DNA from: a bacterium
GTDB taxonomy: Bacteria; Electryoneota; Electryoneia; Electryoneales; Electryoneaceae
Direction: 5' to 3'
Length of the DNA stretch: 64,000 bases
Assembly: GCA_963675295.2 (NCBI GenBank)
Contig: CAXXKJ010000002.1
Location: 4,320,001-4,384,000 of the forward strand
Position 1 is the first letter of the stretch; every line of letters begins with the position of its first letter. Made by a program: the position numbers and the translations under genes. The notes under the pieces are model-generated. The model was not told where the DNA came from and made no database searches. It worked only from the letters and a program-made list of their open reading frames with translations. Shown piece after piece: positions 35,811-50,934 of this stretch.

Positions 35811-37511
35811 ATGAGACAGATCAGTGGAGTTCTGCTTGTGGCACTGTTGGCTGCTGCATGCGCATACGGACAGGCGATTCCGCCAATCAACCTGAGCGCC
35901 GAATTGTTGCAGGCCGGCGAAGTGTCCCTGACCTGGGAGGAGCCGCCGGACGGACTGTTCGAAGATTTCAATGACGGCCTGGCGCAGGGATTTGTCTGGG
36001 AACTGTTTAATGGTTCGCTGCTGATCGAAGAAGGGTATGCCAAGGTCGATGTCACCAACAACGGGTCGGACTGGGGCTCGGCATATTACGAACCGGTGCA
36101 GTTCGACAACTTCACCGCGGAAATCACATATGAAGAAGTCGTCAGCACCTACTCGCGCGGCATGATCTTCCGCACTGACGGCCCGCTCGACAGCGATTGC
36201 AACGGTTACGGCTACTGGACAGCGGGCGGCAGCTATTCCGTCTGGAAGATGACCGGCGGCAACTTCAGCAACCTGGTTTCCTGGACCAGCAGCGCGCTGA
36301 TCAACACGGGCACCGGCGCCGTGAATACGCTGAAAATCATTGCCGACGGCAACAGCTTCACGCTATACATCAACGGTACACAAGTGAACTCGTTTACCGA
36401 CGACAGTTACTCGACCGGCTATGTCGGCCCGGTGACCGCGTACACCAACATCGTGTGGTACGACGAGATGAGCTGTGTCCTCGGTGCGATTCCCGTCCCT
36501 GATGACACACCGGTTCTCCACGGACAGCCGCTACTGGGCGACTTCGATCCGATGGGCCGCCCGTTGAACGACGTCGCAGTGCGTGAGCAGCAGCAGATGC
36601 TGGCGACCGCGCAGTCCGGCAACCCCAGCGGCGGCGATCTCAACGAGATCGACGAGTTCATCGAATACCGCATCTACCGCGACGGAACGTATCTCGGCAG
36701 CTCGACGACCGAAGCCTACACCGACAACCTGCCGCAGCCGGGCGAATACAACTACACCGTGACGGCGTACTACGATCCGGAAGGGGAATCGTCCCCGGCC
36801 GGCCCGCTACTGGTCAACTGGGAACCGGTGGTCCTGACCCTTACCGGACAGATCACCTCGGTTCCGCCGCAGGGTGGGTTGATTTACTACGATGTCTCGG
36901 TCTGGAATACGCTGCCGCAGACATTTAACAACGTCGACTGGTGGACGACGGTGGAATTCCCCAACGGCCAGGAGTTCGGTCCGTTGATGCAGATGAATGT
37001 GACCATCCCCGGCTTCCTCAACACGACGGTTCAGGGCCTGACCCAGAACATTCCGGCTCTCGCGCCGGGCGGCCAGTACATCTTCACCGGTCACATGGGC
37101 AACTACCCCAACAGCATCCTGCATGATAGCTTCACCTTTGAGAAGCAGGGTGTAGGCACCGACGTCATCAGCTTTAACCCGGAAGACTGGATCGGATCGG
37201 AATTCACGCTCGCGTCGGATGAAGCGTCAGTAACCGGTCTACCGTCCGCCTATACACTGAGTGCAGCCTACCCGAACCCGTTCAACCCGAGCACCTCGTT
37301 CAGCGTCAGCCTGCCGGATGCGGCTGACCTGACGGTCACGGTGTACAACATCGCCGGCCAACGTGTCGCGACCCTCGCGGACGGTATGACCAGCGCTGGT
37401 CAGCACGAATTCACCTTCGACGCGCACGGCCTCGCCAGCGGTCTGTACTTCGTGCAGGCGGTGGTCCCGGGTCAGCTGAACCAGATCCGCAAGGTGACCT
37501 TGCTGCGCTAG
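35811..37511 (+). CDS. Family B paralog 1: split FN3 / DUF1080-like lectin-fold insert / Ig-like module / CTD
   Basis: Signal peptide; PPINL...VSLTWEEPP; beta-sandwich NTLKI...FTLYING..V; YRIYRDG...YTVTAYY...ES; PNPFNP CTD. Confidence 0.88.
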   Translation: MRQISGVLLVALLAAACAYGQAIPPINLSAELLQAGEVSLTWEEPPDGLFEDFNDGLAQGFVWELFNGSLLIEEGYAKVDVTNNGSDWGSAYYEPVQFDNFTAEITYEEVVSTYSRGMIFRTDGPLDSDCNGYGYWTAGGSYSVWKMTGGNFSNLVSWTSSALINTGTGAVNTLKIIADGNSFTLYINGTQVNSFTDDSYSTGYVGPVTAYTNIVWYDEMSCVLGAIPVPDDTPVLHGQPLLGDFDPMGRPLNDVAVREQQQMLATAQSGNPSGGDLNEIDEFIEYRIYRDGTYLGSSTTEAYTDNLPQPGEYNYTVTAYYDPEGESSPAGPLLVNWEPVVLTLTGQITSVPPQGGLIYYDVSVWNTLPQTFNNVDWWTTVEFPNGQEFGPLMQMNVTIPGFLNTTVQGLTQNIPALAPGGQYIFTGHMGNYPNSILHDSFTFEKQGVGTDVISFNPEDWIGSEFTLASDEASVTGLPSAYTLSAAYPNPFNPSTSFSVSLPDAADLTVTVYNIAGQRVATLADGMTSAGQHEFTFDAHGLASGLYFVQAVVPGQLNQIRKVTLLR

Positions 37512-37533
37512 TCACGCGTTTCACAGGTTTTTC

Positions 37534-37567
37534 AAGGGGAAACGGGCAGTTTGGCCGTCTCCCTTTT
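37534..37567 (+). terminator. Intrinsic terminator
   Basis: GC hairpin + T tract, nearly identical to 39398-39432. Confidence 0.7.
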
Positions 37568-37686
37568 ATGCTCCCAACTGCTCCATATGCTTGAAAAAAA
37601 TACTGAAAAGCGCAGATTCTCGAGTCTTTCTGGCAGATTGAGCTGTATTTTTATGTTCGTCATGAGGGATTACATGTGAGGGAGAG

Positions 37687-39375
37687 ATGAGAACGTATCT
37701 GGTGCTGTTGCTGGGTTTGCTGATCGTCGGCAGTGCGTTCGGGCAGGCCGTGCCGCCGATCAATCTGCAGGCTGAGTTATTGCAGGGGGGCAATGTTTCG
37801 CTGACGTGGGATCCGCCACCGGATGGTCTGGTCGAGGACTTTGAGGACGGCCTGGCGCAGGATTTCGACTGGTTTGCTCCAGGCGGGACCTATGTCATTG
37901 AGGATGGATACGCGAAGATTGACATGACCACTGGAAGCGATTGGGGATCTGGGGTCTACACTGGCGTAACCTTTGACAACCTGACAGTTTCTACCACTTT
38001 CGAGTACGTTGAGGGTCAGTTGTCGCGCGGCCTGTTGTTCCGTGCCGATGGCCCGAAGGACTCGGATTACACAGGCTACGGCTACTGGATCGCGCACACG
38101 TTGGATGCCTACTCCCTGTGGAAATACAATAATGGCGCGATTACGAACGTCGTCCCCTGGACCGATAGCGCGTTGATCAATGACGGCGTCGGTGCGATCA
38201 ACACGTTGACCTTGACCGCTGACGGTTCAACCTTCGACATGTACATCAATGGTACCTATGTCAGCTCCGTCACGGACGCCTCCCACGCCTCCGGGTATGT
38301 CGGTATCGTCTCCGCCTACGACAACGAAGTCTGGTACGACGACATCACCGGCCTGTTCGGCATCGTGCCGCCGGGCACGGATAACGTGGAAATCGGCACC
38401 CCGATCGCCGGCAATTATGACGATCTCGGCCGTCCCACCGACCAGGTGTACACGCCGTCCGGCACCGTCTTCAACAAGTACGAACAGGGCTGGTCGTCCT
38501 CCAACGAGATCGACGAATTCGTTGAGTATCGCGTCTACCTTGACGGTGACTACGTTGGGTCAACCACAACCGAATCCTTTGACGATACGCTGCCATCGCT
38601 GGGCGAGCACACCTACACCGTGACTGCTTTTTACGATCCGGAAGGTGAATCGTCCCCGGCCGGCCCGGTCCTGGTGAATTGGGAACCGGTGGTCTTGACC
38701 CTTACCGGGCAGGTCACCACTGTCCCACCGGAGGGCGGTATGATTTTCTACGACGTGTCCATCTGGAACACGTTGCCGCAATCCTTCCCGAACGTCAACT
38801 GGTGGACCGAGGTCGAGCTGCCGAACGGTCAGTTGTTCGGCCCGTTGATGACCCGCACGGTCACCATTCCGGGCTTCCTCGACATTACCGTGCAGGCGAT
38901 GAACCAGGACATTCCGAGTCTCGCCCCCGGCGGCGAGTACATCTTCTACGGGCACTTGGGCCATTACCCGACAAGCCTGCTGATGGACAGTTTTACGTTT
39001 ACCAAGGAAGGTGTGGCCACGGACAACATTGAGTTTGATCCGGAGCACTGGGCCGCCGGCGGCGAGTTCAGCATCGCGGCCGATGGCGAAACCGTCGTCT
39101 CGCAACCGTCAACCTACGCGTTGAGCTCAGCATGGCCAAACCCGTTCAACCCGAGCACCTCGTTCAGTGTCAGCCTGCCGGATGCGGCTGACCTGACGGT
39201 CACGGTGTACAACATCGCCGGCCAACGTGTCGCGACCCTCGCGGATGGCATGACCAGCGCCGGACAGCATCAGTACACCTTCGACGCGCACGGCCTCGCC
39301 AGCGGCCTGTACTTCGTGCAGGCGGTGGTCCCGGGTCAGCTGAACGAGATCCGCAAGGTGACCTTGCTGCGCTAG
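37687..39375 (+). CDS. Family B paralog 2
   Basis: Same architecture, 562 aa. Confidence 0.88.
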   Translation: MRTYLVLLLGLLIVGSAFGQAVPPINLQAELLQGGNVSLTWDPPPDGLVEDFEDGLAQDFDWFAPGGTYVIEDGYAKIDMTTGSDWGSGVYTGVTFDNLTVSTTFEYVEGQLSRGLLFRADGPKDSDYTGYGYWIAHTLDAYSLWKYNNGAITNVVPWTDSALINDGVGAINTLTLTADGSTFDMYINGTYVSSVTDASHASGYVGIVSAYDNEVWYDDITGLFGIVPPGTDNVEIGTPIAGNYDDLGRPTDQVYTPSGTVFNKYEQGWSSSNEIDEFVEYRVYLDGDYVGSTTTESFDDTLPSLGEHTYTVTAFYDPEGESSPAGPVLVNWEPVVLTLTGQVTTVPPEGGMIFYDVSIWNTLPQSFPNVNWWTEVELPNGQLFGPLMTRTVTIPGFLDITVQAMNQDIPSLAPGGEYIFYGHLGHYPTSLLMDSFTFTKEGVATDNIEFDPEHWAAGGEFSIAADGETVVSQPSTYALSSAWPNPFNPSTSFSVSLPDAADLTVTVYNIAGQRVATLADGMTSAGQHQYTFDAHGLASGLYFVQAVVPGQLNEIRKVTLLR

Positions 39376-39397
39376 TCACGCGTTTCACAGGTTTTTC

Positions 39398-39432
39398 AAG
39401 GGGAGACGGGCAGTTTGGCCGTCTCCCTTTTT
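39398..39432 (+). terminator. Intrinsic terminator
   Basis: gggagacgg/ccgtctccc hairpin + T tract. Confidence 0.75.
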
Positions 39433-39633
39433 ATCCGCCAAACTGCCGCGCTGCTTGTTAGACAGTGAGTTCAGCTGCTTCTTCTTCCTTGAGTGGTTCA
39501 ATGTCTCTCGCGGCAATTCAGAAAAAACTGGAAACAATGAGAAAACAGTTCTCAGCAACCCGGAGATGCGTTAGATTCCAGCAAACCTGAGAAAGTTGGA
39601 GAAAACCGTTTTCGTTTACAGGGGGAGGTTAAG

Positions 39634-41301
39634 ATGCGTTTCCTGGCAGCGTTGTGTGTCGTATGCCTGTTGGTGGGAGTTTCGGTCGGGCAGGTTGTCC
39701 CACCGATCAACCTGGAGGCTGAGCTGTTGCAGGCCGGAGAAGTGGCACTCACTTGGGATGCACCACCGGACGGGTTAGTTGAAGATTTTGAGGACGGATT
39801 GGCTCAGGATTTCGAGTTCTATCCTGACCCCAATGACTTCATCGTCCAGGATGGATACCTCAAGATGTTGACCAGTTCGGCCTGGCAGTGTGCCTGGTAC
39901 ACCGGCATGCAGTTCACGGATTTCGACATGGAAGCCACGTTCCAGAATGTCGCCAGCAACAATTCCCGCGGTATCCAGTTCCGTGCGGACGGACCCCGGG
40001 ATACCGATTACAACGGCTACAATTTCTATGTCGCCTTGACATCCGGCAACTATTCCATCTACAAGTTTGTCAACGGTTCAAGTTCCACGCCGATTTCGTG
40101 GACGACCAGTCCGTACGTCAACACCGGACAGGGAGAAACCAACACCCTGCGAGTCGTCGGGTCCGGCAACTCCTTTGACTTGTATATCAACGGGAATTAC
40201 GTCGATTCCTTCACCGACGACGATCACCCGTCTGGCATGGTCAGCTGCATTGCGTCCAGCGCGGCAACGGTCTGGTACGATGAGATTACCTGCATTCCGG
40301 CGGCAACACTGGTTCCCGCATCGATGCATCCGCAGGAAACGGTACCAAGTATCGAGTGCGATGAGCAGGGACAGCCGCTGGATGGACGGATTGTCGATCT
40401 GATCCAGCCGCGTATTCCCGTCACCCCGGTTTCGCGCGAAATCGATGAGTTCATCGAATACCGCATCTATCGCGACAACGTTCAGATCGGTACCTCGACG
40501 ACCGAAAGCTACACCGACAATCTGCCGTCGATAGGCGAGTACACCTATACCGTAACCGCCTACTACGACGAAGGCGAATCCAGCCATTCGAATGAGGCTG
40601 TGGTGAACTGGCAGTTGGTGTTCCTCGACCTCACCGGTCAGATTACCCAGATCCCGCCGGAGGGCGGTACGGTCTTCTACGACGCGCACGTGTGGAACAC
40701 CACCGCGCAGACATTCCAGAACGTTCGTTACTGGACTATGGTGGAACTGCCGAACTCACAGGTGTTTGGTCCGCTGACCATGGTCAACGTGAACATCACT
40801 GGCTTCATGAACACGACGGTTCAGGGCCTGACTCAGGATATTCCGGTGTACGCGCCGGAAGGAACCTACACCCTCACCGGTCATCTCGGTTTCTACCCGG
40901 TCAGCTACCTCAGTGACAGCTTCGAATTCGAGAAGCTGGGCACGGGTGTTGACGCGGTGGACTTCAATCCGTCGGACTGGTCCGGTTCTGCTCTGACTCT
41001 GGCGTCGGATGATGAAGCGGCTGTTTCGCTGCCGTCAGCCTACGCGTTGAGTGCAGCGTACCCGAACCCGTTCAACCCGAGCACCTCGTTCAGCGTCAGC
41101 CTGCCCGAATCGGCTGAGCTGACGGTCACGGTCTACAACATCGCCGGTCAGCGTGTCGCGACCCTCGCGGACGGCATGACCAGCGCCGGACAGCATGAGT
41201 ACACCTTCGACGCGCACGGCCTCGCCAGCGGCCTGTACTTCGTGCAGGCAGTGGTTCCGGGCCAGCTGAACGTGATCCGCAAGATCACGCTGCTGCGATA
41301 A
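39634..41301 (+). CDS. Family B paralog 3
   Basis: Same architecture, 555 aa; ggaggt RBS. Confidence 0.88.
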   Translation: MRFLAALCVVCLLVGVSVGQVVPPINLEAELLQAGEVALTWDAPPDGLVEDFEDGLAQDFEFYPDPNDFIVQDGYLKMLTSSAWQCAWYTGMQFTDFDMEATFQNVASNNSRGIQFRADGPRDTDYNGYNFYVALTSGNYSIYKFVNGSSSTPISWTTSPYVNTGQGETNTLRVVGSGNSFDLYINGNYVDSFTDDDHPSGMVSCIASSAATVWYDEITCIPAATLVPASMHPQETVPSIECDEQGQPLDGRIVDLIQPRIPVTPVSREIDEFIEYRIYRDNVQIGTSTTESYTDNLPSIGEYTYTVTAYYDEGESSHSNEAVVNWQLVFLDLTGQITQIPPEGGTVFYDAHVWNTTAQTFQNVRYWTMVELPNSQVFGPLTMVNVNITGFMNTTVQGLTQDIPVYAPEGTYTLTGHLGFYPVSYLSDSFEFEKLGTGVDAVDFNPSDWSGSALTLASDDEAAVSLPSAYALSAAYPNPFNPSTSFSVSLPESAELTVTVYNIAGQRVATLADGMTSAGQHEYTFDAHGLASGLYFVQAVVPGQLNVIRKITLLR

Positions 41302-41326
41302 ATACTGGCTTTTCTGGAGTCGAACA

Positions 41327-41362
41327 CGGGGAACCGGCAGATTCGCCGGTTCCCCGCTTTTT
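41327..41362 (+). terminator. Intrinsic terminator
   Basis: cggggaaccggc/gccggttccccg hairpin + T tract. Confidence 0.75.
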
Positions 41363-41504
41363 CCAAGGGAAGCAGTGTGGAGACCGAGCCGCTTCGGCTC
41401 TGATCCACCAACAAGAATTTATCGTTTCCACGGTACAGCCGTGATCTGGCAGCGAATCAGGTAGTACGTTATGCCAGCTTAACGGTAACCAAAGGGAGGG
41501 AAAG

Positions 41505-43205
41505 ATGAAACTGCTGGCAGGAGTAGCGTTGATAGCTTTCTTGGTGTCGAGCGTATTTGGTCAGGCGATTCCGCCGATCAACCTCAACGCCGAATTGTTA
41601 CAGGCGGGGGAAGTATCCCTGACATGGGAAGAGCCGCCGGATGGGCTGTTTGAAGACTTCAACGACGGCGTCGCCCAGGGATTTGAGTGGCTGCTGTACA
41701 ACGGATCGTATGTCATAGAGGACGGGTATGCCAAGGTAGACGTCACCACGAACGTCAGCGGCCAGTGGGGAACAGGCGTCTACACACCGGTCGTGTTTGA
41801 TGACTTTACTGCGGAAGTAACCTACGAGGGTTACGAAGGATATACTTCCCGCGGGATGGTTTTCCGCTGTGACGGCAATTTCGACAGTAATTTCAATGGC
41901 TACGGATTCTGGACATCCAACACTTCATTTTCAGTCTGGAAATATGTGAACGGATCGGAAACCAATGCCTTCAGTTGGACAACCAGCAGCTATATCAACA
42001 CCGGCACCGGCGAGTCCAACACCCTGAAGGTGACCGGCGAGGGCAGCACCTTCACCCTTTACATCAACGGCCATAACGTGGGATCGTTCACCGACACCGC
42101 GCATGCGACCGGACATGTCGGCGTCGTCGCAGCGTATGGCGACCTGATCTGGTTTGACGAACTCACGAGTGTCTTCGGCATTCTCCCCGGTGCGGACAGC
42201 GTTTCGGGTGAGCCAGGCGAACCTCTGCAGGGTCAGTTCGACTCGATGGGCCGTCCGTTGAACGATGTTGCCGTGCGTGAACAGCAGCAGATGCGGGCGA
42301 CTGCGCAGTCGGGCAACCCCAGCGGTGGCGACCTCAACGAGATCGACGAGTTCATTGAATACCGCATCTACCGAGACGGAACCTACATCGGCGCTGCAAC
42401 AACTGAAGCCTACACCGACAACCTGCCGCAACCGGGTGAGTACGAATACACCGTGACGGCCTATTATGATCCGGAGGGCGAATCGTCCCCGGCCGGCCCG
42501 CTGATGGTCAACTGGGAACCGGTTGTCTTGACCCTCACCGGGCAAATCACCACAGTCCCGCCGCAGGGTGGGCTGATTTACTACGATGTCTCGGTCTGGA
42601 ATACGTTGCCGCAGACATTCAACAACGTCAACTGGTGGACGACGGTTCAACTCCCGAACGGACAGATGTTCGGACCGCTCACACTGATGAACGTGACTAT
42701 CCCCGGCTTCATCAACACGACTGTTCAGGGGCTGACCCAGAACATTCCGAACCTCGCACCGAGTGGTGACTACATCTTCACCGGTCACCTGGGTAACTAC
42801 CCAAACAGCATTCTGAACGACAGCTTCACGTTTGAGAAGCAGGGTGTGAGTAGCGACGCCATCAACTTCAACCCGGAAGACTGGGTCGGATCTGAATTCA
42901 CGCTCGCGTCCGATGAGGCGTCGGTAACCGGTCTGCCTTCCGCCTACGCACTGAGCGCGGCGTATCCGAACCCGTTCAACCCGAGCAACTCGTTCAGTGT
43001 CAGCCTGCCTGACGCCGCCGAGCTGACGGTCACGGTCTACAACATCGCCGGTCAACGTGTCGCGACCATCGCGGACGGCATGACCAGCGCCGGCCAGCAC
43101 GAGTACACCTTCGACGCATCCGGTTTGGCCAGCGGGTTGTACTTTATTCGAGCAGTTGTACCCGGTGAACTGGATCAGATTCGGAAGGTTACGCTGATCC
43201 GTTAA
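41505..43205 (+). CDS. Family B paralog 4
   Basis: Same architecture, 566 aa; C-terminal half nearly identical to paralog 1. Confidence 0.88.
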   Translation: MKLLAGVALIAFLVSSVFGQAIPPINLNAELLQAGEVSLTWEEPPDGLFEDFNDGVAQGFEWLLYNGSYVIEDGYAKVDVTTNVSGQWGTGVYTPVVFDDFTAEVTYEGYEGYTSRGMVFRCDGNFDSNFNGYGFWTSNTSFSVWKYVNGSETNAFSWTTSSYINTGTGESNTLKVTGEGSTFTLYINGHNVGSFTDTAHATGHVGVVAAYGDLIWFDELTSVFGILPGADSVSGEPGEPLQGQFDSMGRPLNDVAVREQQQMRATAQSGNPSGGDLNEIDEFIEYRIYRDGTYIGAATTEAYTDNLPQPGEYEYTVTAYYDPEGESSPAGPLMVNWEPVVLTLTGQITTVPPQGGLIYYDVSVWNTLPQTFNNVNWWTTVQLPNGQMFGPLTLMNVTIPGFINTTVQGLTQNIPNLAPSGDYIFTGHLGNYPNSILNDSFTFEKQGVSSDAINFNPEDWVGSEFTLASDEASVTGLPSAYALSAAYPNPFNPSNSFSVSLPDAAELTVTVYNIAGQRVATIADGMTSAGQHEYTFDASGLASGLYFIRAVVPGELDQIRKVTLIR

Positions 43206-43254
43206 ACGTGTTGTTCCTGAGCAACTTGAGAATAAGATTTCGCGTCAAAAAGAG

Positions 43255-43285
43255 ACAACCCCGGTCATTCTGGCCGGGGTTGTTT
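43255..43285. terminator. Hairpin terminator between convergent genes
   Basis: acaaccccgg/ccggggttgt. Confidence 0.7.
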
Positions 43286-43312
43286 ATCGCAGGAGTTAAC
43301 GATCAGCGGAGA

Positions 43313-43969
43313 TCAGTGGTCGAAGAACTGCAGGCCGAGGTTCACGCTGACCGTTCGGAAACGATCGTCTTGTCCGGAGGTATAGAACCCGGCTTCGGTT
43401 CCGGCCACCAGCACCGTGGTGATCCCGCCGAGTTGGAACCGCACTGGTGTGCGCACTGTCACCGCCGGCGCCAGCAACATGTACGATTGGCGCGTGATGC
43501 CGATGACGTCGATTGCCTCCCGTCGTTCCCGTTCGGCGAACGCCCAGCCCCACTTCATGCTGAACTCGGTCGCCAGCGACTCCTCGTAGAAGTCGGCGGA
43601 ATTGGTCCATGCCAGGGTGAACAGCAGGCCGGTCCGCGCGACGTCATTCAGCACACCATTGCCGTCATCATACGGCGCGCCACCATCCACGTTGCTGTAG
43701 CCTCCGAATACGCCGACGCCGTACCCCATGCTCGGCTCCGGTAACGGGTCCATCGGCCCGCTCAGTCCATTGATCCAGTTTCGCCGCCAGGCGGCTTCCA
43801 CGCCGATTGAACGATCAGGGCTCAAGGTCGCGGTGGACTCGGTGGTGGTTTCGGTGCGTGCGTCCACCTCGAACGCGTTCTGCTGGATGAATCGTTCGGA
43901 CGCGCACCCGCTCAGCGCCAACAGGGTGGCGATCAACAGCACGGTGCGGACGGTGAAAGTGGTCGTCAT
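43313..43969 (-). CDS. Putative lipoprotein / small outer-membrane beta-barrel
   Basis: Lipobox LSGC; amphipathic strands, VSVNLGLQF near the C-terminus; aagggg RBS. Confidence 0.65.
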   Translation of the reverse strand: MTTTFTVRTVLLIATLLALSGCASERFIQQNAFEVDARTETTTESTATLSPDRSIGVEAAWRRNWINGLSGPMDPLPEPSMGYGVGVFGGYSNVDGGAPYDDGNGVLNDVARTGLLFTLAWTNSADFYEESLATEFSMKWGWAFAERERREAIDVIGITRQSYMLLAPAVTVRTPVRFQLGGITTVLVAGTEAGFYTSGQDDRFRTVSVNLGLQFFDH

Positions 43970-44865
43970 GGTTCCCCTTGATTCCGGTCGGCTGCCGCTT
44001 CACATGACACGATTCTTCTGTTGTACGCCTCGAAGGTACGTCCGGTTCGCGGCAATGGGCACGCTGCCTCCCCTCTCACAGGGATCAGGGATCGAGCAAG
44101 TCCTGGATCGGCCTCCCATCGGGATCGGCATGACTCTGGAGGACTGTGGAAATTTCAAGAAAATCGTCGAGTGGATGGTGGATTTCTCCTTTCGTTTTCT
44201 ATCTTGTGCATGAGGGATTCATCTGCGGAAGGTGAGCCGCAGATGGGGCTTGTTGCTCATCCAAACTCTTGGAATAACAAGTCTTTCCCTTGAATTGGAC
44301 GCTGCTATCGCGGCTGGCCTGCACAGGGTTTTACAGCTGAATGGTGGCGTATGCTCTTTCAGGTACCCCCCGGAAACGGTCCATTCTGACAGCATCTGTA
44401 TTGTGAACCGGATGATAATGACGGGCCGCACTTCCTTCACCGATCTGGTGAATTTCAGCCGTCGAAAGACAGTAGAACCCGGAACTTGCTGCTCCACGAG
44501 CGAGGATGGTGAATGCAAAAAATTCCCATCGGGTCTTGCGGGCGGCACGAATTATGTGCATGCTCTGACGCTTGGGTGAACTGGCTTTCTTTTGCTGTAC
44601 GATCTGGCACAAAACGCGATCTGTGACCTCGGGTCACTGGAAAACAAGCACCGACTGTTCACACTGATTTGGGAGACTTCGCCGTCTGTTTTCGAGGGGG
44701 TGGGTCTCCCTCTGTTGTCTTGGCAGTTGATGGTTTTTCCAAGGCATCGAGGTGGGAAGTCGTGCACGAAATTCCAGGTTCGGCTGAGTCACAGATCCTC
44801 ACAACGTAGTTCAAGGCAGCAGCGTGGACTCGTCCATGCAGGGTCAAACCTAAAAGGGGAAAGAG

Positions 44866-46557
44866 ATGAAACATGTAGTCATGCTCGTGCTCGGATTGCT
44901 GGTGGCCGGTATGGCTTTCGGCCAGGCAATACCTCCGATGAATCTGCAGGCTGAAGTGTTGACGGCCGGTGATGTCGAGTTGACGTGGGAAGAACCGCCG
45001 GAGGGTCTGGTTGAGGACTTCAATGACGGTCTTGCTCAGGGATTCGAATTTTTCGTTGGCCCTGGTTCATACATGATTGATGGTGGTTTCTGCAAATTTG
45101 ACGTCGTCGGCAACACCACCGACTGGGGTTCTGGTACCTACATGAACCTCGCGTTCGATAACTTCAGCTGCAGCACGACCATTCAGTATCAGGTCACGCA
45201 GGGTTATTCGACCGGTCTGCTGTTCTGCGGTAACGGCCCCCAGGATGGCGACTACGAAGGCTACGCGGTGTACATCAGCAACACCAGCTATTCCGCGTGG
45301 TACTACGTTGCCGGTGCCCCGACCAACATCATTGGTTGGACGACCGGCACCGCGATCAACACCGGTGTTGGCGCGGTGAACGTGCTGCAGATTGACGGCA
45401 GCAACGGCACCTTCGACATCACCATCAACGGCAACTACGAAGGCAGCTTCACGAACGCGACGTATCCGTCCGGTTATGTTGGCATGGCATGCGCTTACAC
45501 CAACGAAACCTGGTTCGATGACATCAACTGCATGTTCGCCGCCAATGCTCCGGATGCCCCGGCGCAGATGGGCGAGCTGGAAACCGTGCTTCGTGACGAC
45601 ATGGGTCGTGTGATCACCAACCCGGATGATTTCTACGTCCAGGGCCGTGCCTTTGACCGCTACGGCGAAGGTGGCAACGCCCTTGATGAACTGCTGGGCT
45701 ACAACATCTACCGTGATGGTAACCTTGTCGGCAGTGTTGGCATGGCGAACTTGAGCTACATCGATACGATGCCGACGCTCAACGAAACCTACGAATACAC
45801 CGTCACCGCGGTGTACGATCCGGAAGGCGAATCGTCTCCGGCCGGCCCGGTTGTCGTGACCTGGGATCCGGTCTTCTTCACGCTTGAAGGCCAGATCACG
45901 GAAATCCCGGCGGCGGGTGGTGGGATGTACTACGATGCGCACCTGCTCAACACACTTCCGCAGACCTTCTCGCAGGGTGTGTTCTACAAAACCTACGTGA
46001 CCTTCCCGAATGGTCAGAGCTTCGGTCCGCTGAGCCAGCAGCCGGTCGTGATCCCGGGCTTCGTCAACACGACGGTTGAAGGTCTGTTCCTGATGCTGCC
46101 GGCGCATGCTCCGGCGGGTAACTATGTCTTCACGGGCCGTCTTGGCACCAACAATACGTACGTGGAAGACACGGTTGACTTCACCAAGCTCGCGGCTGCG
46201 ACGGACAACACCTACGTGTCCGACCCGAGCGCCTGGGCGCAGAACAGCACGCTCGCGTTTGAAGACCTGAACACTCCAGTTGAGGTTCCGGTTGACTATG
46301 CGATGAGCGCTGCGTATCCGAACCCGTTCAACCCGACCACCACCATCAGCATCACCATGCCGGAAGCGGCGGATCTGTCGGTCGTGGTGTACAACGTTCA
46401 GGGTCAGAAGGTTGCGACGCTGGCGCATGGCCAGATCAATGCCGGCCAGCACACCTTCACGTTTGATGCCAACGGTCTCGCCAGTGGCCTGTACTTCGTG
46501 CATGCCGTGGTTCCGGGACAGCTGGATCAGATTCGCAAGGTGACCTTGCTGCGTTAA
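44866..46557 (+). CDS. Family B paralog 5
   Basis: Same architecture, 563 aa. Confidence 0.88.
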   Translation: MKHVVMLVLGLLVAGMAFGQAIPPMNLQAEVLTAGDVELTWEEPPEGLVEDFNDGLAQGFEFFVGPGSYMIDGGFCKFDVVGNTTDWGSGTYMNLAFDNFSCSTTIQYQVTQGYSTGLLFCGNGPQDGDYEGYAVYISNTSYSAWYYVAGAPTNIIGWTTGTAINTGVGAVNVLQIDGSNGTFDITINGNYEGSFTNATYPSGYVGMACAYTNETWFDDINCMFAANAPDAPAQMGELETVLRDDMGRVITNPDDFYVQGRAFDRYGEGGNALDELLGYNIYRDGNLVGSVGMANLSYIDTMPTLNETYEYTVTAVYDPEGESSPAGPVVVTWDPVFFTLEGQITEIPAAGGGMYYDAHLLNTLPQTFSQGVFYKTYVTFPNGQSFGPLSQQPVVIPGFVNTTVEGLFLMLPAHAPAGNYVFTGRLGTNNTYVEDTVDFTKLAAATDNTYVSDPSAWAQNSTLAFEDLNTPVEVPVDYAMSAAYPNPFNPTTTISITMPEAADLSVVVYNVQGQKVATLAHGQINAGQHTFTFDANGLASGLYFVHAVVPGQLDQIRKVTLLR

Positions 46558-46600
46558 CAGCTTGATCGGCTGAATGCCGTATTCCTTCCGATTGAGAGGG

Positions 46601-46634
46601 CACCCCGGACTGGCAACAGTTCGGGGTGTTTTTT
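46601..46634 (+). terminator. Intrinsic terminator
   Basis: caccccggact/agttcggggtg hairpin + T6. Confidence 0.75.
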
Positions 46635-46991
46635 GTCTCTCTTGCGTCCCTCGGGGTACCCGTTCACGTTTGACAAAAACGCCAAACCGCTTGCAAAACG
46701 AGCTCGAATTGTGCAATGTCTAGGGGTCGTTCAGAATACAGTTGAGCCGACTTGCACGGGCCGCGTAGATCGACGCTGAACGGAAGGCTGTGCACGATAC
46801 CTCTCCGCTTCCGACGACGCGCCTGCAAAGGCGTGCCCACCAGGCCAGGCTTGACAAAGTCCCCCTCTCGATCGAGTTTTACGCAGCACAAACGTGGTCA
46901 ACGAGACGCGTGGATCATCCTGACCAAAATGGAATATTCAGCTCTTTCCATAGCAGTGATACGATACAGGGTCCAACACAAGGGGATTAAC

Positions 46992-48677
46992 ATGAAGCAA
47001 GTCGTCCTGTTTGCATTGGGAATGCTGTTCGTCGCTTCGGCGTTCGGGCAGGCGATTCCCCCGATGAATCTCGCCGCGGAGGTGCTGACCGACGGCGACG
47101 TCGAGTTGACGTGGGAAGAACCGCCGGAGGGGTTGGCGGAAACGTTTGACAGCGATCCGGGTGATTCCTGGAACTGGCTGGTTCAATCGATCAGTTTCGA
47201 AGACGGCTATGCCAAGATCAATGGTAGCGGTGCGAGCGACTGGCAGACCGGCGCGTACGAAAATCTGGAGTTCAGCAGCTTTACGCTGAACAGCACCTTT
47301 GAGATTCAGGATGCCTCCACTTCTTCGCGTGGTGTCATGTGGTGCGTCAACGGCCCGCGCGATGCCGACTTCCAGGGCTATGGCATGTACATCTCCAACA
47401 CCAGCTGGTCGGTCTGGAAATACACCAACGGCTCGGCGTCCAGCGTCATTTCCTGGAGCACCGGCACCGGCATCAACACTGGTCAGGGCGCGGTCAACAC
47501 GATGGAAGTCCAGGGAGCTGATGGCACGTTCGATCTCTACATCAACGGCACCTACCACAACAGCTTCACCGACAACAGTTATCCCCAGGGTTTCGTTGGC
47601 GTGATTGAAGCATACAACGTCACCTGGTACGACGAGATTTCCTGCATCTTCAGTGCCGCGCCGGACGCCGTCCCCGCCCCGGCTCAGCCGGGCGAACCGG
47701 TCGCCGGTTACTTCGATGACATGGGCAATCCGGTCAACGAACCGTTGCCGGTAGCTGAAAACGTGCGTGTTTTTGACCGCTACGGCCAGGGTGGTGGCAA
47801 TGCGCTGGACGAACTGGTTGGCTACAACATTTACCGTGATGGCAACCTCGTTGGCAGCGTAGGCGCGACCACGTTCAGCTACGTTGACACCATGCCGACA
47901 CTGTGGGAAACGTACGAATACACCGTCACCGCAGATTACGATCCGGAAGGCGAATCCGCCCCGGCAGGCCCGGTCAGCGTAACCTGGGATGCGGTCTATT
48001 TCACCCTCACCGGTGTCATCACCGAAATCCCGGCCAACGGCGGCACGCTGTTCTATGACGCCAGCGTGATCAACACTCTCGGCACTACGTTCAACCAGGG
48101 TGTGACTTACAAGACGTTCCTCAACTTCCCGAACGGCCAGTTTTTCGGGCCGATCAGCGCGTCTCCGGTCACCATTGCAGCGTACCTGAACACCACGGTT
48201 CAAGGTCTGTCGCTGAGCCTTCCGGCGCTTGCCCCGGCTGGCGAGTACATCTTCACCGGCCGTCTCGGCACAAACAATACGTACGTCGAAGACTCATTCA
48301 CCTTCACCAAGTTGAGCAGCGGCACCGACGGTGTTGTTTCCGATCCCAGCACCTGGGCGCAGAACAGCACGCTCGCGTTCGAGGACCTGAGCACGCCGGT
48401 TGAAGTCCCGGTTGACTTTGCGATGAGCGCGGCGTACCCGAACCCGTTCAATCCGACCACCTCGGTCAGCATCACGATGCCGGAAGCCGGTGAGTTGAGC
48501 CTGACCGTCTACAACATCCAGGGCCAGGTTGTCGCGACCCTCAGCGATGGCATGATCAGCGCGGGCAGCCACCAGTTCACGGTTGACGCTAACGATCTCG
48601 CCAGCGGTCTGTATTTCATCCGCGCGTCGGTTCCGGGCAAGCTGAACCAGGTTCAGAAGGTGACCTTGCTGCAGTAA
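46992..48677 (+). CDS. Family B paralog 6
   Basis: Start MKQVVLF after agggga RBS; same architecture. Confidence 0.88.
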   Translation: MKQVVLFALGMLFVASAFGQAIPPMNLAAEVLTDGDVELTWEEPPEGLAETFDSDPGDSWNWLVQSISFEDGYAKINGSGASDWQTGAYENLEFSSFTLNSTFEIQDASTSSRGVMWCVNGPRDADFQGYGMYISNTSWSVWKYTNGSASSVISWSTGTGINTGQGAVNTMEVQGADGTFDLYINGTYHNSFTDNSYPQGFVGVIEAYNVTWYDEISCIFSAAPDAVPAPAQPGEPVAGYFDDMGNPVNEPLPVAENVRVFDRYGQGGGNALDELVGYNIYRDGNLVGSVGATTFSYVDTMPTLWETYEYTVTADYDPEGESAPAGPVSVTWDAVYFTLTGVITEIPANGGTLFYDASVINTLGTTFNQGVTYKTFLNFPNGQFFGPISASPVTIAAYLNTTVQGLSLSLPALAPAGEYIFTGRLGTNNTYVEDSFTFTKLSSGTDGVVSDPSTWAQNSTLAFEDLSTPVEVPVDFAMSAAYPNPFNPTTSVSITMPEAGELSLTVYNIQGQVVATLSDGMISAGSHQFTVDANDLASGLYFIRASVPGKLNQVQKVTLLQ

Positions 48678-48706
48678 TCCGGTCGATTCATCATCGATGT
48701 TTACTT

Positions 48707-48740
48707 ATCCCCGGGCCGATACAGGTCCGGGGATTTTTTT
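48707..48740 (+). terminator. Intrinsic terminator
   Basis: atccccgggcc/ggtccggggat hairpin + T tract. Confidence 0.75.
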
Positions 48741-49183
48741 GCGTCTTGTCCTCCGGCGAGAAACCATTTCTACAGTAAATCCATGAGAAATCTAAAGCTG
48801 AACATGCTTTCGGCAACTCCTTAACCTCGCTCTCTGAGGCTAGTTAACGAGTTTAGTTTTCATGCCCGGCTTGCAAACTCGTTGTGTTTGATGCAAATTC
48901 CTGAGACACGCTGCTGTCGGGTGCGCAGCAGACCCGAACAAACGCTGGAAAGGGCTGTTTTGGCGAATTTCACTTGAGACAATCGTCGACGGCCGGCGTT
49001 GAACAGGAGAATATCCCAAGGGGGGATATTCTCCTTTTTCGTCAAGGGTGGACGTATCGGTCAATCGACGTGAATCACGGGTAGTTGCAGGCAGATCTGC
49101 GCAGATCTGCCAACGGATAGCCTGTCAATCAGAGTTGCAGTGGCGTGAGTTGATTGTGTGCACGTCAAACAAGGGGGGTAACG

Positions 49184-50872
49184 ATGAAACATTTTCTGTT
49201 GGTCATCCTGGGAGTGGCGGTTGCCGGACTTGTTTTCGGACAAGCGGTGCCTCCGATGAACCTCGCTGCCGAGGTGTTGACTGCCGGGCAGGTTGAGCTG
49301 ACCTGGGACGAACCGCCGCCCGGATTGGTCGAGTCATTTGACGCGGATCCGGGCACCGCTTGGAATTGGCTTTATGTTGGCGGAACACTGGTGTTCGATG
49401 GTGGCTACGCCAAGATGGATGTCACCGGCACCAATGCCTGGGGGACGGGTGCATACGAGATGCTCGAATTTGACAACTTCGCCCTCGATTGCACCTTCGA
49501 AATTCAGGACACACAAACCAGTTCGCGTGGTGTGATGTGGTGTACCAACGGACCGCGTGACGCCGATTTCCAGGGCTACGGCTGCTATGTAAGTAGCACT
49601 AGTTATTCTGTCTGGAAGTACACGGCGGGCAGCGCATCAAGCATCATTTCATGGACTACCGGCACCGGGATCAACACCGGCATCGGCGCTGTGAACCAGA
49701 TGCATGTCGATGGTTCCAACGGAACCTACGATATCTACATCAACGGCACGTACCACAACAGCTTCACCGATGCGTCCTACCCGCAGGGCTATGTCGGCGT
49801 GATCGAAGCCTACAACATCACCTGGTGGGATGAGATCACCTGCTTCTTCGGTGCGGCGGCTGCACCGGACGCACCCGCGTACCATGGCACGCCGGTCGAG
49901 GGCTGTTTCGACGACATGCACAATCCCGTCGACACCCCGCTGCCGGTTGCGGAAGGTGTGCGCGTGTTTGACCGCTATGGTCAGAGTGGTGGAAACGCGC
50001 TGGATGAGCTGCTCGGGTATCGCATCTACCGCGATGGAGCAGAAGTCGGCGCTGTGGGTCCGGCCACACTCAGCTTCATCGACACCATGCCCACGCTGAA
50101 CGAAACCTACGAATACACCGTCACTGCGGTCTACGATCCGGAAGGCGAATCGTCACCGGCAGGCCCGTTGTATGTGACCTGGGAACCGGTGTATCTCGAC
50201 TTGATCGGTCAGATTACCGAAATCCCGGCCTCCGGTGGGTCGATGTACTATGACGCCCATGTGCTGAACACTCTGCCGACCACCTTCAGCCAGGGAGTGA
50301 CCTACAAAACGTACGTTCAGTTCCCCAACGCACAGGTCTTCGGTCCGTTGAGCATGCAGCCGGTCGTCATTCAGGGCTACATGAACACCACGGTCAACGG
50401 CCTGTTCCTGACGCTACCAGCCCATGCTCCGGCCGGCGACTACGTGTTCCGTGGCAGGTTGGGCACGAACAACATGTACCTCGAGGATACGGTGGACTTC
50501 ACCAAGCTTCCCAGTGCTGCGGATAGCTGGGTCTCAGACCCGTCCACCTGGCCGCAGAACCACACGCTTACGCTGGAGGACCTGACCACGCCGGTCTCAG
50601 CTCCAGTCGGCTATGCGTTGAGCGCGGCGTATCCGAATCCGTTCAACCCGAGCACGTCCATAAGCGTCACCATGCCCGAGGCGGGTGAACTGGCGATCGT
50701 GGTCTACAACATTCAGGGCCGGCAGGTCGCCACGTTGACGCAGGGCCAGCTCAATGCCGGCCGTCACACATTCACTTTCAACGCCGACGGTCTCGCCAGC
50801 GGTTTGTATTTCGTGCACGCCGTTGTCCCGGGCCAGTTGGACCAGATCCAAAAAGTGACTTTGCTGCGGTAA
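49184..50872 (+). CDS. Family B paralog 7
   Basis: Start MKHFLL; same architecture. Confidence 0.88.
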   Translation: MKHFLLVILGVAVAGLVFGQAVPPMNLAAEVLTAGQVELTWDEPPPGLVESFDADPGTAWNWLYVGGTLVFDGGYAKMDVTGTNAWGTGAYEMLEFDNFALDCTFEIQDTQTSSRGVMWCTNGPRDADFQGYGCYVSSTSYSVWKYTAGSASSIISWTTGTGINTGIGAVNQMHVDGSNGTYDIYINGTYHNSFTDASYPQGYVGVIEAYNITWWDEITCFFGAAAAPDAPAYHGTPVEGCFDDMHNPVDTPLPVAEGVRVFDRYGQSGGNALDELLGYRIYRDGAEVGAVGPATLSFIDTMPTLNETYEYTVTAVYDPEGESSPAGPLYVTWEPVYLDLIGQITEIPASGGSMYYDAHVLNTLPTTFSQGVTYKTYVQFPNAQVFGPLSMQPVVIQGYMNTTVNGLFLTLPAHAPAGDYVFRGRLGTNNMYLEDTVDFTKLPSAADSWVSDPSTWPQNHTLTLEDLTTPVSAPVGYALSAAYPNPFNPSTSISVTMPEAGELAIVVYNIQGRQVATLTQGQLNAGRHTFTFNADGLASGLYFVHAVVPGQLDQIQKVTLLR

Positions 50873-50904: not shown

Positions 50905-50934
50905 CACCCCGGGCCGTTCGGTCCGGGGTGTTTT
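50905..50934 (+). terminator. Intrinsic terminator
   Basis: caccccgggcc/ggtccggggtg hairpin + TTTT. Confidence 0.72.

Follow-up and report, generated by a model that had tools for sequence, protein, structure and literature searches.

A seven-gene array of putative surface lectins with a CBM66/DUF1080-type domain nested in a split FN3 domain

Seven paralogous genes in a 64,000-nucleotide stretch of an Electryoneaceae genome (the window) encode proteins in which, as two-piece profile matches indicate, an inserted lectin-fold domain interrupts FN3 after strand B. We consider it reasonably probable that the array as a whole is a repertoire of surface lectins in which the lectin domain sits in the FN3 B-C loop, the two parts of the FN3 domain fold together within one molecule, and the proteins leave the cell through its type IX secretion system (T9SS).

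Results

Organization of the array

The seven genes lie on the same strand and follow a common plan (Table 1). From the amino terminus, each protein consists of a signal peptide, FN3 strands A-B, a beta-sandwich (of ~178 aa, rather than the ~190 aa of the original prediction), a predicted disordered linker of ~55 aa, FN3 strands C-G, an Ig-like module and a T9SS type A CTD. Identity to gene 1 across the paralogous proteins is 49–76%. Upstream of each ATG is a purine-rich Shine-Dalgarno-like run, which backs the called starts; apart from this ribosome-binding run, the upstream regions of the array genes hold no common motif, and sigma-70-like promoter matches at the array are not enriched (3 observed versus 5.9 expected). 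The lipoprotein-like ORF that interrupts the array has no family match. It has a 92% identical counterpart at the same position in the congener G001 and, of 31 related genomes, was found in only two, both of them carriers of the array. Among the window proteins scanned, we saw no glycoside hydrolase or transporter genes adjoining the array.

Table 1. Features of the array, with the domains of gene 1 (positions are those of the window).
Feature	Position	Strand	Size or residues	Remarks
Whole array	35811-50872	+	555-566 aa	seven paralogs
Gene 1	35811..37511	+	566 aa
Gene 1 signal peptide	35811-35870		res 1-20
Gene 1 FN3 strands A-B	35871-35954		res 21-48
Gene 1 CBM66/DUF1080-like insert	35955-36488		res 49-226
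Gene 1 disordered linker	36489-36650		res 227-280	predicted
Gene 1 FN3 strands C-G	36651-36824		res 281-338
Gene 1 Ig-like module	36825-37148		res 339-446
Gene 1 second linker	37149-37265		res 447-485
Gene 1 T9SS type A CTD	37266-37508		res 486-566
Gene 2	37687..39375	+	562 aa	common plan; ortholog G4 in congener G001
Gene 3	39634..41301	+	555 aa	common plan; ortholog G2 in congener G001
Terminator-like hairpin	41327-41356			after gene 3
Gene 4	41505..43205	+	566 aa	common plan; no one-to-one ortholog in G001
Lipoprotein-like ORF	43313..43969	-	217 aa	lipobox-like LSGC; between genes 4 and 5
Gene 5	44866..46557	+	563 aa	group B paralog
Terminator-like hairpin	46595-46634			after gene 5
Gene 6	46992..48677	+	561 aa	counted from ATG 46992; ORF open from 46752
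Terminator-like hairpin	48707-48734			after gene 6
Gene 7	49184..50872	+	562 aa	counted from ATG 49184; mosaic
Terminator-like hairpin	50905-50930			after gene 7

The insert is flanked by two motifs, and the motif-flanked plan that had been predicted for the seven genes is confirmed throughout. The N-terminal motif, present in all seven proteins, has the invariant residues Q21, P24, P25, N27, L28, A30, E31, L33, G36, V38, L40, T41, W42, P45 and P46. An invariant D281-E282 closes the linker in every protein, and the second motif, likewise found in 7/7, keeps Y286, Y289, D291, G296, Y315-T-V-T-A319, Y321, D322 and E324-G-E-S327. The L that replaces R in the second motif of gene 2 was already allowed for by the predicted consensus, but the DN that gene 3 carries instead of DG was not.

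Export and surface attachment

All seven proteins matched PF18962 (30.4–38.9 bits; cut-off 27), and the four tested against TIGR04183 all matched it (35.9–38.5 bits; cut-off 23). The genome also encodes PorU (NF033707, 708.7 bits; cut-off 420). With a CTD in each protein and PorU in the genome, the array proteins can be classed from their sequences as T9SS type A cargo. The Ig-like module together with the type A CTD forms a cassette that recurs in far more than a hundred of the genome's cargo proteins. In the ESM Atlas, the Ig-like module found scores of ≤0.85 only, with T9SS-tail and CARDB leads. The proteins would be exported by Sec, with the signal peptide cut before the invariant Gln, and then by the T9SS. 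If P. gingivalis is a guide, the T9SS would recognize the CTD and the PorU sortase would take it off as the protein is fixed at the cell surface; surface anchoring of the array proteins is likely.

The insert has a lectin fold

The insert adopts a lectin fold of the CBM66/DUF1080 type. The DUF1080-type lectin fold that had been proposed for it was borne out by fold searches, by profile comparison and, in three of the seven proteins, by PF06439. Aligned with VIA-align to the CBM66 of the Bacillus subtilis levanase SacC (PDB 4azz, 4b1l, 4b1m), the insert gave a Z of 21.7 and an rmsd of 1.9 over 156 of 165 residues, with only ~16% identity; this CBM66 was its best structural match among the matches listed (Z 20.0 in the wide search). 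A family profile covering all members reached the DUF1080 protein 4jqt (BT3469; E=1.2e-11) as well as CBM66 (E=3.1e-7). PF06439 scored above its cut-off of 26.8 bits in genes 1–3 (28.3, 33.2 and 36.8 bits, respectively) and just under it in gene 4 (26.0 bits), with no match at E<=0.01 in genes 5–7. A phmmer search of PDB sequences with the insert alone returned nothing at E<=1; CBM66 and DUF1080 were reached by profiles only. DUF1080 proteins, including BT3469 and the BT2/AL2 lyase/hydratases, thus belong to the same superfamily as the insert by profile, and by Pfam in three of the seven. In the levanase, CBM66 lies C-terminal to a GH32 enzyme and, according to PMC12678895, binds the terminal fructose of levan. 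In contrast, the array insert is nested in an FN3 loop and has no enzyme partner.

The heads might instead bind non-carbohydrate targets such as proteins, mineral or cell surfaces, or make up an abundant structural coat, with the concanavalin-like fold serving only as a scaffold. Among the matches listed, the fold is common to many protein-binding modules, including the thrombospondin C-terminal domain and phage receptor-binding proteins, and no carbohydrate-active genes flank the array. We nevertheless regard this alternative as unlikely: among relatives that can be detected by sequence and whose function is known, a CBM and DUF1080 proteins that act on sugars lie closest, and the aromatic residues conserved in the insert (W88, Y93, F98, Y133, W158 and W216) are of the kind typical of sugar-binding sites. 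These features suggest that carbohydrate is the ligand class of the heads.

It is very unlikely that the inserts are surface-displayed DUF1080 3-keto-glycoside lyase/hydratase enzymes of the BT2/AL2 type rather than lectins. PF06439, above cut-off in 3/7 proteins, does carry the name of a 3-keto-disaccharide hydrolase, and the 3-keto-glycoside eliminase/hydratase 9fbe aligns to the insert at Z 16.5. However, the site proposed for BT2 is made up of Glu, Asn, Glu, Gln, Tyr, Lys, Gln and His and is described as conserved over 3,183 homologues (bioRxiv 10.1101/2024.03.25.586180), whereas in an indirect, array-wide comparison the insert columns that are invariant in the seven proteins contain no Glu, Gln or His. 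A BT2-type site therefore cannot be conserved across the array, and the check for 3-keto-glycoside hydrolase catalytic residues that accompanied the original prediction did not recover the BT2/AL2 site across the seven inserts. The BT2/AL2 enzymes are also larger, with five “finger” extensions around a conserved Glu/Gln/His-containing site in the same preprint's account, while the insert is compact and CBM66-sized. In addition, the hydratase 8v31 fits it poorly (rmsd 6.7 by Foldseek), and the scanned proteins of the window included no Gfo/Idh/MocA oxidoreductase that could be its partner.

Paralogs diverge while orthologs are conserved

The array is syntenic in G001, where five of its genes have one-to-one orthologs. 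Between paralogs, conservation is highest in the FN3 pieces (mean identity 74% and 66%), and among the folded parts the insert diverges most (38–73% identity). Because dS among the seven paralogs is saturated (>1 in most regions), the orthologs from G001 were used for dN/dS. Ortholog inserts are 87–95% identical in four of the five pairs, with a pooled dN/dS of 0.12, and neither paralog nor ortholog comparisons gave any sign of positive selection. These values indicate that purifying selection between species acts strongly on the insert of each paralog. The proposal of a diversified glycan-binding repertoire is thus supported in part, by the divergence between paralogs, but loops do not stand out in that divergence (identity of 0.47 in strands versus 0.45 elsewhere), and no hypervariability focused on them was seen.

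The scaffold of gene 4 is 93% identical to that of gene 1, its insert only 58%, and gene 7 is a mosaic whose insert and linker are nearest to gene 6 (70–73%) and whose Ig module is nearest to gene 5 (79%). Judged by sequence comparison, the array is old and mosaic recombination has occurred within it. The seven genes would then be long-standing paralogs that have remained transcription units of their own. Inserts that differ strongly among paralogs, yet are conserved between species, most likely represent a repertoire for binding carbohydrate (or other surface) ligands that vary from one protein to the next.

The FN3 domain is split at the B-C loop

We compared the proteins with a custom FN3 profile of 88 contiguous, unsplit repeats, including those of P0124, a protein that Pfam fn3 itself scores at 285 bits. 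FN3 was recognized by the conserved Trp of strand B, Tyr of strand C and Y-x-Y-x-V-x-A of strand F, matched collinearly. The profile matched the array proteins as two collinear pieces with the break in the B-C loop, between profile positions 32 and 34. In six proteins (genes 1 and 3–7), the N-piece covers profile positions 3/7-30/32 at residues ~17–48, with 6.4–9.5 bits each (weak singly), and the C-piece covers positions 34-82/88 at residues ~271–331, with 28–52 bits; gene 2 gave 7.1 bits for the N-piece and 29.7 bits for its best domain. N-piece-only matches of at least 6 bits numbered 12 among the 8,820 ORFs of the genome (2.83 million residues); seven were the array genes and three were further split-FN3 relatives. 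Because such matches are nearly confined to the array family genome-wide, the split is not a chance pattern. The Pfam fn3 model had no match at E<=0.01 in the seven proteins, as might be expected of a domain split by ~230 residues.

An AlphaFold2 model of residues 20–340, built on a 34-sequence alignment, reached a pLDDT of 86 and a pTM of 0.72. The blocks with the A-B hairpin scored 77, 93 and 85 and the last six blocks, with strands C-G, 82–95; model residues 235–261, in the linker, fell below 50. All seven FN3 strands are assigned in this model. The monomer prediction suggested for this array thus yields one confident two-domain body, with FN3 assembly read from confidence scores only. Because the lectin domain occupies every one of the 50 fold-search matches listed for the head, with none on the FN3 halves, fold searches give no view of those halves; the first Foldseek list also mixes in multi-domain matches (rmsd >19). 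Two-piece profile matches, insert fold matches and the AlphaFold2 model together support the predicted splitting of FN3 by a lectin-fold insert, and model confidence, as opposed to inspected contacts, points to intramolecular packing of the halves.

The head would accordingly be pictured as an FN3 beta-sandwich whose opened B-C loop carries an entire lectin domain of the CBM66/DUF1080 type and, after it, a flexible return linker of ~55 residues. Its first two and last five strands, ~230 residues apart, would fold together in one chain. Each such putative binding head, with no enzyme domain attached, would stand on the Ig-like “stalk” module and the type A CTD.

The FN3-plus-insert unit is widespread

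Both FN3 halves and the insert occur in one stretch in 37 of the 150 representatives listed, some of them proteins of 1,700–3,200 aa with Peptidase_C10, MAM or Fib_succ_major domains. Split FN3 domains are present in 43 of the 268 proteins compared, with gaps of 175–322 aa; the relative with the 175-aa gap, from this genome, has the insert and lacks the long linker. The unit recurs as a single block across many unrelated T9SS cargo proteins, also in genomes with few copies, and a CBM66/DUF1080 insert in a split FN3 is also found in MAGs labelled Calditrichota and Delongbacteria. Permissive Pfam identified none of the possible inserts of protein L001.

That the FN3 halves pair between molecules, A-B of one completing C-G of another to build hetero-polymers or a surface layer as originally envisaged, would fit the conservation of the FN3 pieces, which makes cross-pairing sterically possible, a long disordered linker that would permit domain swapping, and reports that processed gingipain adhesin fragments remain non-covalently associated (PMC5266723, PMC10319874), but it found no support and is highly improbable, since the model of a single chain comes out as one confidently predicted body, the unit needs no partner because it is found once per protein in large unrelated cargo, the 175-aa relative does without the long linker, proximity should favor cis pairing, and no half-FN3 orphan was identified, the “C-part only” family members showing a diverged N-terminal motif by eye.

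Discussion

The surface lectin repertoire proposed here has its closest parallel in the gingipain (RgpA, Kgp) and HagA adhesins of Porphyromonas, T9SS cargo in which “adhesin binding motifs” (ABMs) flank Cleaved_Adhesin domains. In a P. loveana protein of the HagA/gingipain type (L014), our FN3 profile finds an N-piece at 218–245 and a C-piece at 429–475 on either side of Pfam Cleaved_Adhesin (248–420), and a second split FN3 with pieces at 481–512 and 696–742. The break falls between profile positions 33 and 37, the same place as in the array proteins. What differs is the inserted domain, which is Cleaved_Adhesin (PF07675) in Porphyromonas and DUF1080/CBM66 in the array: PF07675 and DUF2436 (PF10365) both match the P. 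loveana protein strongly and have no match at E<=0.01 in the seven array proteins. In addition, gingipains are described as polyproteins with a protease domain that are cut into fragments (PMC5266723), whereas the array proteins have one head each and no protease. The profiles thus indicate that the array proteins share the split FN3 with the gingipain/HagA adhesins but are not members of that family. The original prediction had called FN3 completion in these adhesins established; the same split is indeed seen in P. loveana by profile, but the word was too strong, as the open literature describes ABMs but our searches of it did not turn up the assertion that ABMs complete an FN3 fold.

The same display principle is known from Gram-positive pilus tip adhesins such as RrgA and GBS104, in which a binding domain is inserted into a loop of an Ig-like stalk domain. 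These differ from the array proteins in placing vWA in CnaB/Ig-like folds and in being secreted and anchored through sortase pili, and the two are not known to be homologous.

We speculate, as a tentative proposal that we hold at rather less than even, that one FN3 subfamily provides T9SS adhesins across the Bacteroidota-related phyla with a general “socket” in its B-C loop, open to various binding domains of beta-sandwich type (CBM66/DUF1080 in the array proteins and the MAGs labelled Calditrichota and Delongbacteria, Cleaved_Adhesin in Porphyromonas), and that the ABMs of gingipain/HagA adhesins are strands A-B of such split FN3 domains. If true, FN3 strands would flank an inserted cleavable domain, which would explain the non-covalent cohesion of processed gingipain fragments. 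The Porphyromonas parallel in this way gives the ABMs a structural reading that can be tested.

These data define a display unit of two domains that can be reused, in which an FN3 loop houses a lectin-type domain. The unit has spread through the T9SS cargo of poorly studied phyla, and domain databases miss it because the host FN3 is split. The array itself offers seven naturally diverged, probably differently specific putative heads on a constant scaffold, which would make it convenient for ligand discovery.

Architecture of the array

The array put forward in the original prediction is real and was well described. Its seven products, counted from the ATG behind the ribosome-binding run, are 555-566 aa long, can be aligned end to end and share 49-76% identity with the gene 1 product. 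All of the predicted motif elements were found in the seven-protein alignment, the sole lapse being N for G in gene 3. The N-terminal segment, Q-x-(I/V)-P-P-x-N-L-x-A-E ... V-x-L-T-W-x-x-P-P, has 15 invariant positions, an invariant D-E closes the linker, and the second segment, Y-x-(I/V)-Y-(R/L)-D ... Y-x-Y-T-V-T-A-x-Y-D-x-E-G-E-S, is also conserved.

Coordinates of the array and related features (window positions unless prefixed; genes 1-7 are ORFs, each with an ATG after a purine-rich ribosome-binding run)
Feature	Coordinates	Strand	Remark
Gene 1	35811-37511	+	
Gene 2	37687-39375	+	
Gene 3	39634-41301	+	
Gene 4	41505-43205	+	
Gene 5	44866-46557	+	
Gene 6	46992-48677	+	
Gene 7	49184-50872	+	
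Lipoprotein-like ORF	43313-43969	-	217 aa, inside array; congener counterpart L013:9052-9708
Second array, five related genes	G000:C1:182124-196543	-	on 274-kb contig

The genes fall into two groups, genes 1-4 (group A) and genes 5-7, with the lipoprotein-like ORF on the opposite strand between them. This ORF matched no Pfam or NCBIfam family. A 92% identical copy lies at the equivalent position in a congener, and among 31 related genomes the ORF was found in only two, both array holders; it might serve as a dedicated partner or as an anchor. Terminator-like hairpins lie 3' of genes 3, 5, 6 and 7 and the regions upstream of the seven genes are unrelated to one another; from these features, the genes look individually transcribed. 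Gene 7 is directly followed by an ORF that resembles a transposase and has an HTH_38 domain (51155-52147), and farther on lies a DDE transposase (DUF772/DDE_Tnp_1; 60883-62388). In the congener, a different 543-aa gene follows the sixth paralog in place of a gene 7 ortholog.

An FN3 domain split between strands B and C

Pfam detected no FN3 domain in any of the seven proteins. When gene 1 residues 20-340 were used as a library-wide query, they retrieved giant tandem-repeat proteins matching the C-terminal piece only; Pfam fn3 scored 285 bits in P0124, the one such giant scanned. In these tandem repeats, the counterparts of the two array motifs are direct neighbors, with a loop of about ten residues between them. 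We constructed an FN3 profile of 90 positions from 88 contiguous repeats cut out of six proteins. In six of the seven array proteins (all but gene 2), profile positions 3/7-30/32 (strands A-B, the N-piece) matched residues ~17-48 at 6.4-9.5 bits, and positions 34-82/88 (strands C-G, the C-piece) matched residues ~271-331 at 28-52 bits. The two pieces are collinear with the break between strands B and C, as expected if, as originally proposed, one FN3 domain is split in two. For gene 2, the best FN3-profile domain scored 29.7 bits, and its N-piece was matched in a genome-wide scan of all 8,820 ORFs with a minimum length of 150 aa (six frames, 2.83 million residues). That scan returned just 12 N-piece-only matches of at least 6 bits, seven of them array genes and three other split-FN3 relatives; by this measure, the weak N-piece matches are specific.

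AlphaFold2 modeling of the whole protein from 19 sequences was mediocre (pLDDT 74.8, pTM 0.43), while residues 20-340, modeled from 34 sequences of greater diversity, gave a pLDDT of 86 and a pTM of 0.72. In the latter model, pLDDT was 77-93 in the A-B blocks and 82-95 in the C-strand-to-G-strand blocks, and values below 50 were confined to the linker (model residues 235-261). A pTM of 0.72 indicates that the fixed arrangement extends past the 178-residue insert, and we infer that the FN3 domain is probably assembled and docked onto the insert. The matches listed in the fold-search tables for the head were all to the lectin domain. It had also been proposed that FN3 strands could be complemented between molecules. 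Such swapping between array proteins is possible in principle, but nothing in this analysis supports it. We are highly confident of the architecture, in which a CBM66/DUF1080 domain is nested in the FN3 B-C loop and the FN3 probably folds within one chain.

The inserted domain

The insert (gene 1 residues 49-226) is a concanavalin-like beta-sandwich. Structural comparison ranks the CBM66 domain of Bacillus subtilis levanase first (156/165 residues, rmsd 1.9, Z 21.7; Z 20.0 in a fold search of 48,161 representatives), followed by the galactocerebrosidase lectin domain and the DUF1080 protein BT3469. As a single-sequence query the insert matched no PDB sequence; the family profile matched 4jqt (E=1.2e-11) and CBM66 (E=3.1e-7). 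Pfam PF06439 scored above cut-off in genes 1-3 and narrowly below in gene 4, and was silent in genes 5-7. The predicted DUF1080-type lectin fold is thus supported by both structure and profile. The terminal fructose of levan is described as the CBM66 ligand (PMC12678895), but with only ~16% identity between insert and CBM66, no ligand can be transferred.

For the BT2/AL2 DUF1080 enzymes, a site conserved in 3,183 homologues is reported, with two Glu, two Gln and one His among its residues (bioRxiv 10.1101/2024.03.25.586180). In contrast, the insert columns invariant in the seven paralogs include no Glu, Gln or His, so a shared 3-keto-glycoside enzyme activity of this type is unlikely.

The linker (gene 1, 36489-36650, and equivalents) comprises ~55 residues and is predicted to be disordered; its D-x-(M/L/Q)-(G/H) patch includes an Asp, D246, that is invariant. 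The free-standing DUF1080 copy of 775-801-aa relatives is followed by a tail of similar kind, so the tail is part of the inserted module and no mere spacer.

Export signals and the C-terminal cassette

Each protein ends in an unnamed Ig-like module and a type A C-terminal sorting domain (CTD) of the T9SS, together the last ~230 residues (type: 36825-37508). Gene 1 had 155 matches in its own genome at E<=1e-5, and among the 150 listed, roughly 130 cover the C-terminal part only. Identity among sharers of the cassette is 35-57% (e.g. C2:4283581-4284270, C2:1458586-1459254); by sequence, it is the standard "stalk" for T9SS cargo genome-wide. The CTD exceeded the PF18962 cut-off in all seven proteins and matched TIGR04183 in all four tested, and the genome encodes a PorU sortase (708.7 bits).

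Gly-Gln is invariant in all seven proteins at the predicted signal-peptidase site (35868-35873 and equivalent codons), which would make Gln the first residue of the mature proteins. A "Q-rule" has been described for Bacteroidetes Sec substrates (PMC5837995, PMC10653852). The invariant Gln would fit this rule of pyroglutamate-capped secreted proteins, although the source organism is an uncultured relative and no classical member of the Bacteroidia.

Distribution of the module

The library-wide search with gene 1 residues 20-340 found 2,497 representatives at E<=0.001, and 37 of the 150 matches listed cover both FN3 halves and the insert in a single stretch. Four long matches of this kind that were scanned (P0136, P0151, P0158, P0166) bear further domains (MAM, InhA-like MAM, Fib_succ_major or Peptidase_C10), and a T9SS CTD is present in three of them. 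A split FN3 was present in 43 of 268 proteins examined with the FN3 profile (gaps of 175-322 aa, median 228), and one of these proteins combines three contiguous FN3 domains with two split ones. Where given, the source labels of module relatives are "bacterium", "Calditrichota bacterium" and "Candidatus Delongbacteria bacterium". Among the window's own genome and 30 relatives, the head was matched at E<=1e-10 in 14 of 31.

The window's genome holds 24 insert-like domains in 21 ORFs. A script called an FN3 C-piece behind 17 of the 24, with gene 2 a threshold miss; five are free-standing, in the second array. Three genes of that array encode, besides the split-FN3 head, another DUF1080-like domain that stands free between Ig module and CTD, and two encode a free-standing copy only. 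An 820-aa T9SS protein elsewhere in the genome (G000:C2:731886-734348) may contain a pair of split FN3 domains, with gaps of 200 and 158 aa and very weak N-pieces (0.8 and 1.2 bits); for their candidate inserts, neither Pfam nor the DUF1080-like profile gave a match. The family profile also matches, by the FN3 C-piece only (Y-x-I-x-R-D-G...), residues ~474-518 of Clostridium perfringens ZmpA/B/C glycopeptidases (PDB 5kdn, 5kdj, 7js4, 6xsz, 6xsx).

Evolution of the array

The congener has the array in an identical setting, where an acyl-CoA dehydrogenase gene is followed by four paralogs, then the oppositely oriented lipoprotein gene and two further paralogs. A maximum-likelihood tree of 13 proteins, which omits the seventh congener ORF because it is a different protein, contained five well-supported one-to-one ortholog pairs and left gene 4, gene 7 and the congener's third gene without partners. 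The proposed diversified repertoire holds insofar as inserts are only 38-73% identical between paralogs, against 52-94% for the FN3 pieces. However, the divergence is not focused on loops (pairwise identity 0.45 in loops, 0.47 in strands), insert identity between orthologs is 87-95% in four of five pairs, and pooled insert dN/dS between orthologs is 0.12. Inserts so unlike each other yet individually conserved are more in line with distinct functions that have become settled than with diversifying selection still under way.

The sequences also give a clear picture of a mosaic. Genes 1 and 4 and the congener's gene 1 have FN3 pieces 90-93% identical but inserts only 58-64% identical, and in the gene 1 ortholog pair dS reaches 1.31 in the insert, against 0.30-0.42 for the FN3 pieces on either side. 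Gene 7 is closest to gene 6 in insert and linker (70-73%) and to gene 5 in the Ig module (79%). Across the two species, group A CTDs are 82-96% identical in a pattern that does not follow orthology (CTD-coding ends 37266-37508, 39130-39372 and others), and CTD dS lies below that of other regions (pooled 0.30 vs 0.72 in the insert), which suggests gene conversion of the secretion tail among group A paralogs.

The Porphyromonas parallel

Adhesin binding motifs (ABMs) of RgpA, Kgp and HagA are described as lying between and flanking Cleaved_Adhesin and DUF2436 domains, and may act in assembling processed fragments into complexes (PMC5266723, PMC10319874). No statement of ABMs as FN3 strands was found in the portions consulted of the literature searched, including these papers and the DUF2436 structure paper (PMC11448926). 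A short degenerate pattern scan of the genome collection yielded three Porphyromonas loveana loci. One encodes an 819-aa HagA/gingipain-type protein with DUF2436 and two Cleaved_Adhesin stretches (best at 248-420), in which the FN3 profile matched two pairs of N-piece and C-piece, the first at 218-245 (10.0 bits) and 429-475 (20.1 bits), the second at 481-512 (5.9 bits) and 696-742 (42.6 bits). A gingipain C-terminal fragment from the same species has a contiguous FN3 at 38-116 (46.3 bits). Past it come an N-piece (120-150), Cleaved_Adhesin (154-324) and a match containing a C-piece (321-373). Pieces placed around Cleaved_Adhesin point to the same FN3 subfamily split at the same loop, with a different domain inserted: Cleaved_Adhesin there, CBM66/DUF1080 here. 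The predicted likeness to gingipain/HagA adhesins, whose two separated motifs were said to complete an FN3-like fold, is thus right in substance, on profile matches rather than a structure and in a relative of P. gingivalis.

Discussion

Taken together, we consider it somewhat probable that the array is a repertoire of T9SS-displayed lectin-type heads with CBM66/DUF1080 nested in the FN3 B-C loop; each head would present its lectin-type domain via the T9SS from the B-C loop of an intrachain-folded FN3. Insertion of domains into beta-sandwich stalks is an already known principle, and the array is therefore a variation on it, not a new one. Of greater interest is a possible extension of this reading, in which the B-C loop would be a shared insertion socket of T9SS adhesins and would underlie the gingipain ABMs.
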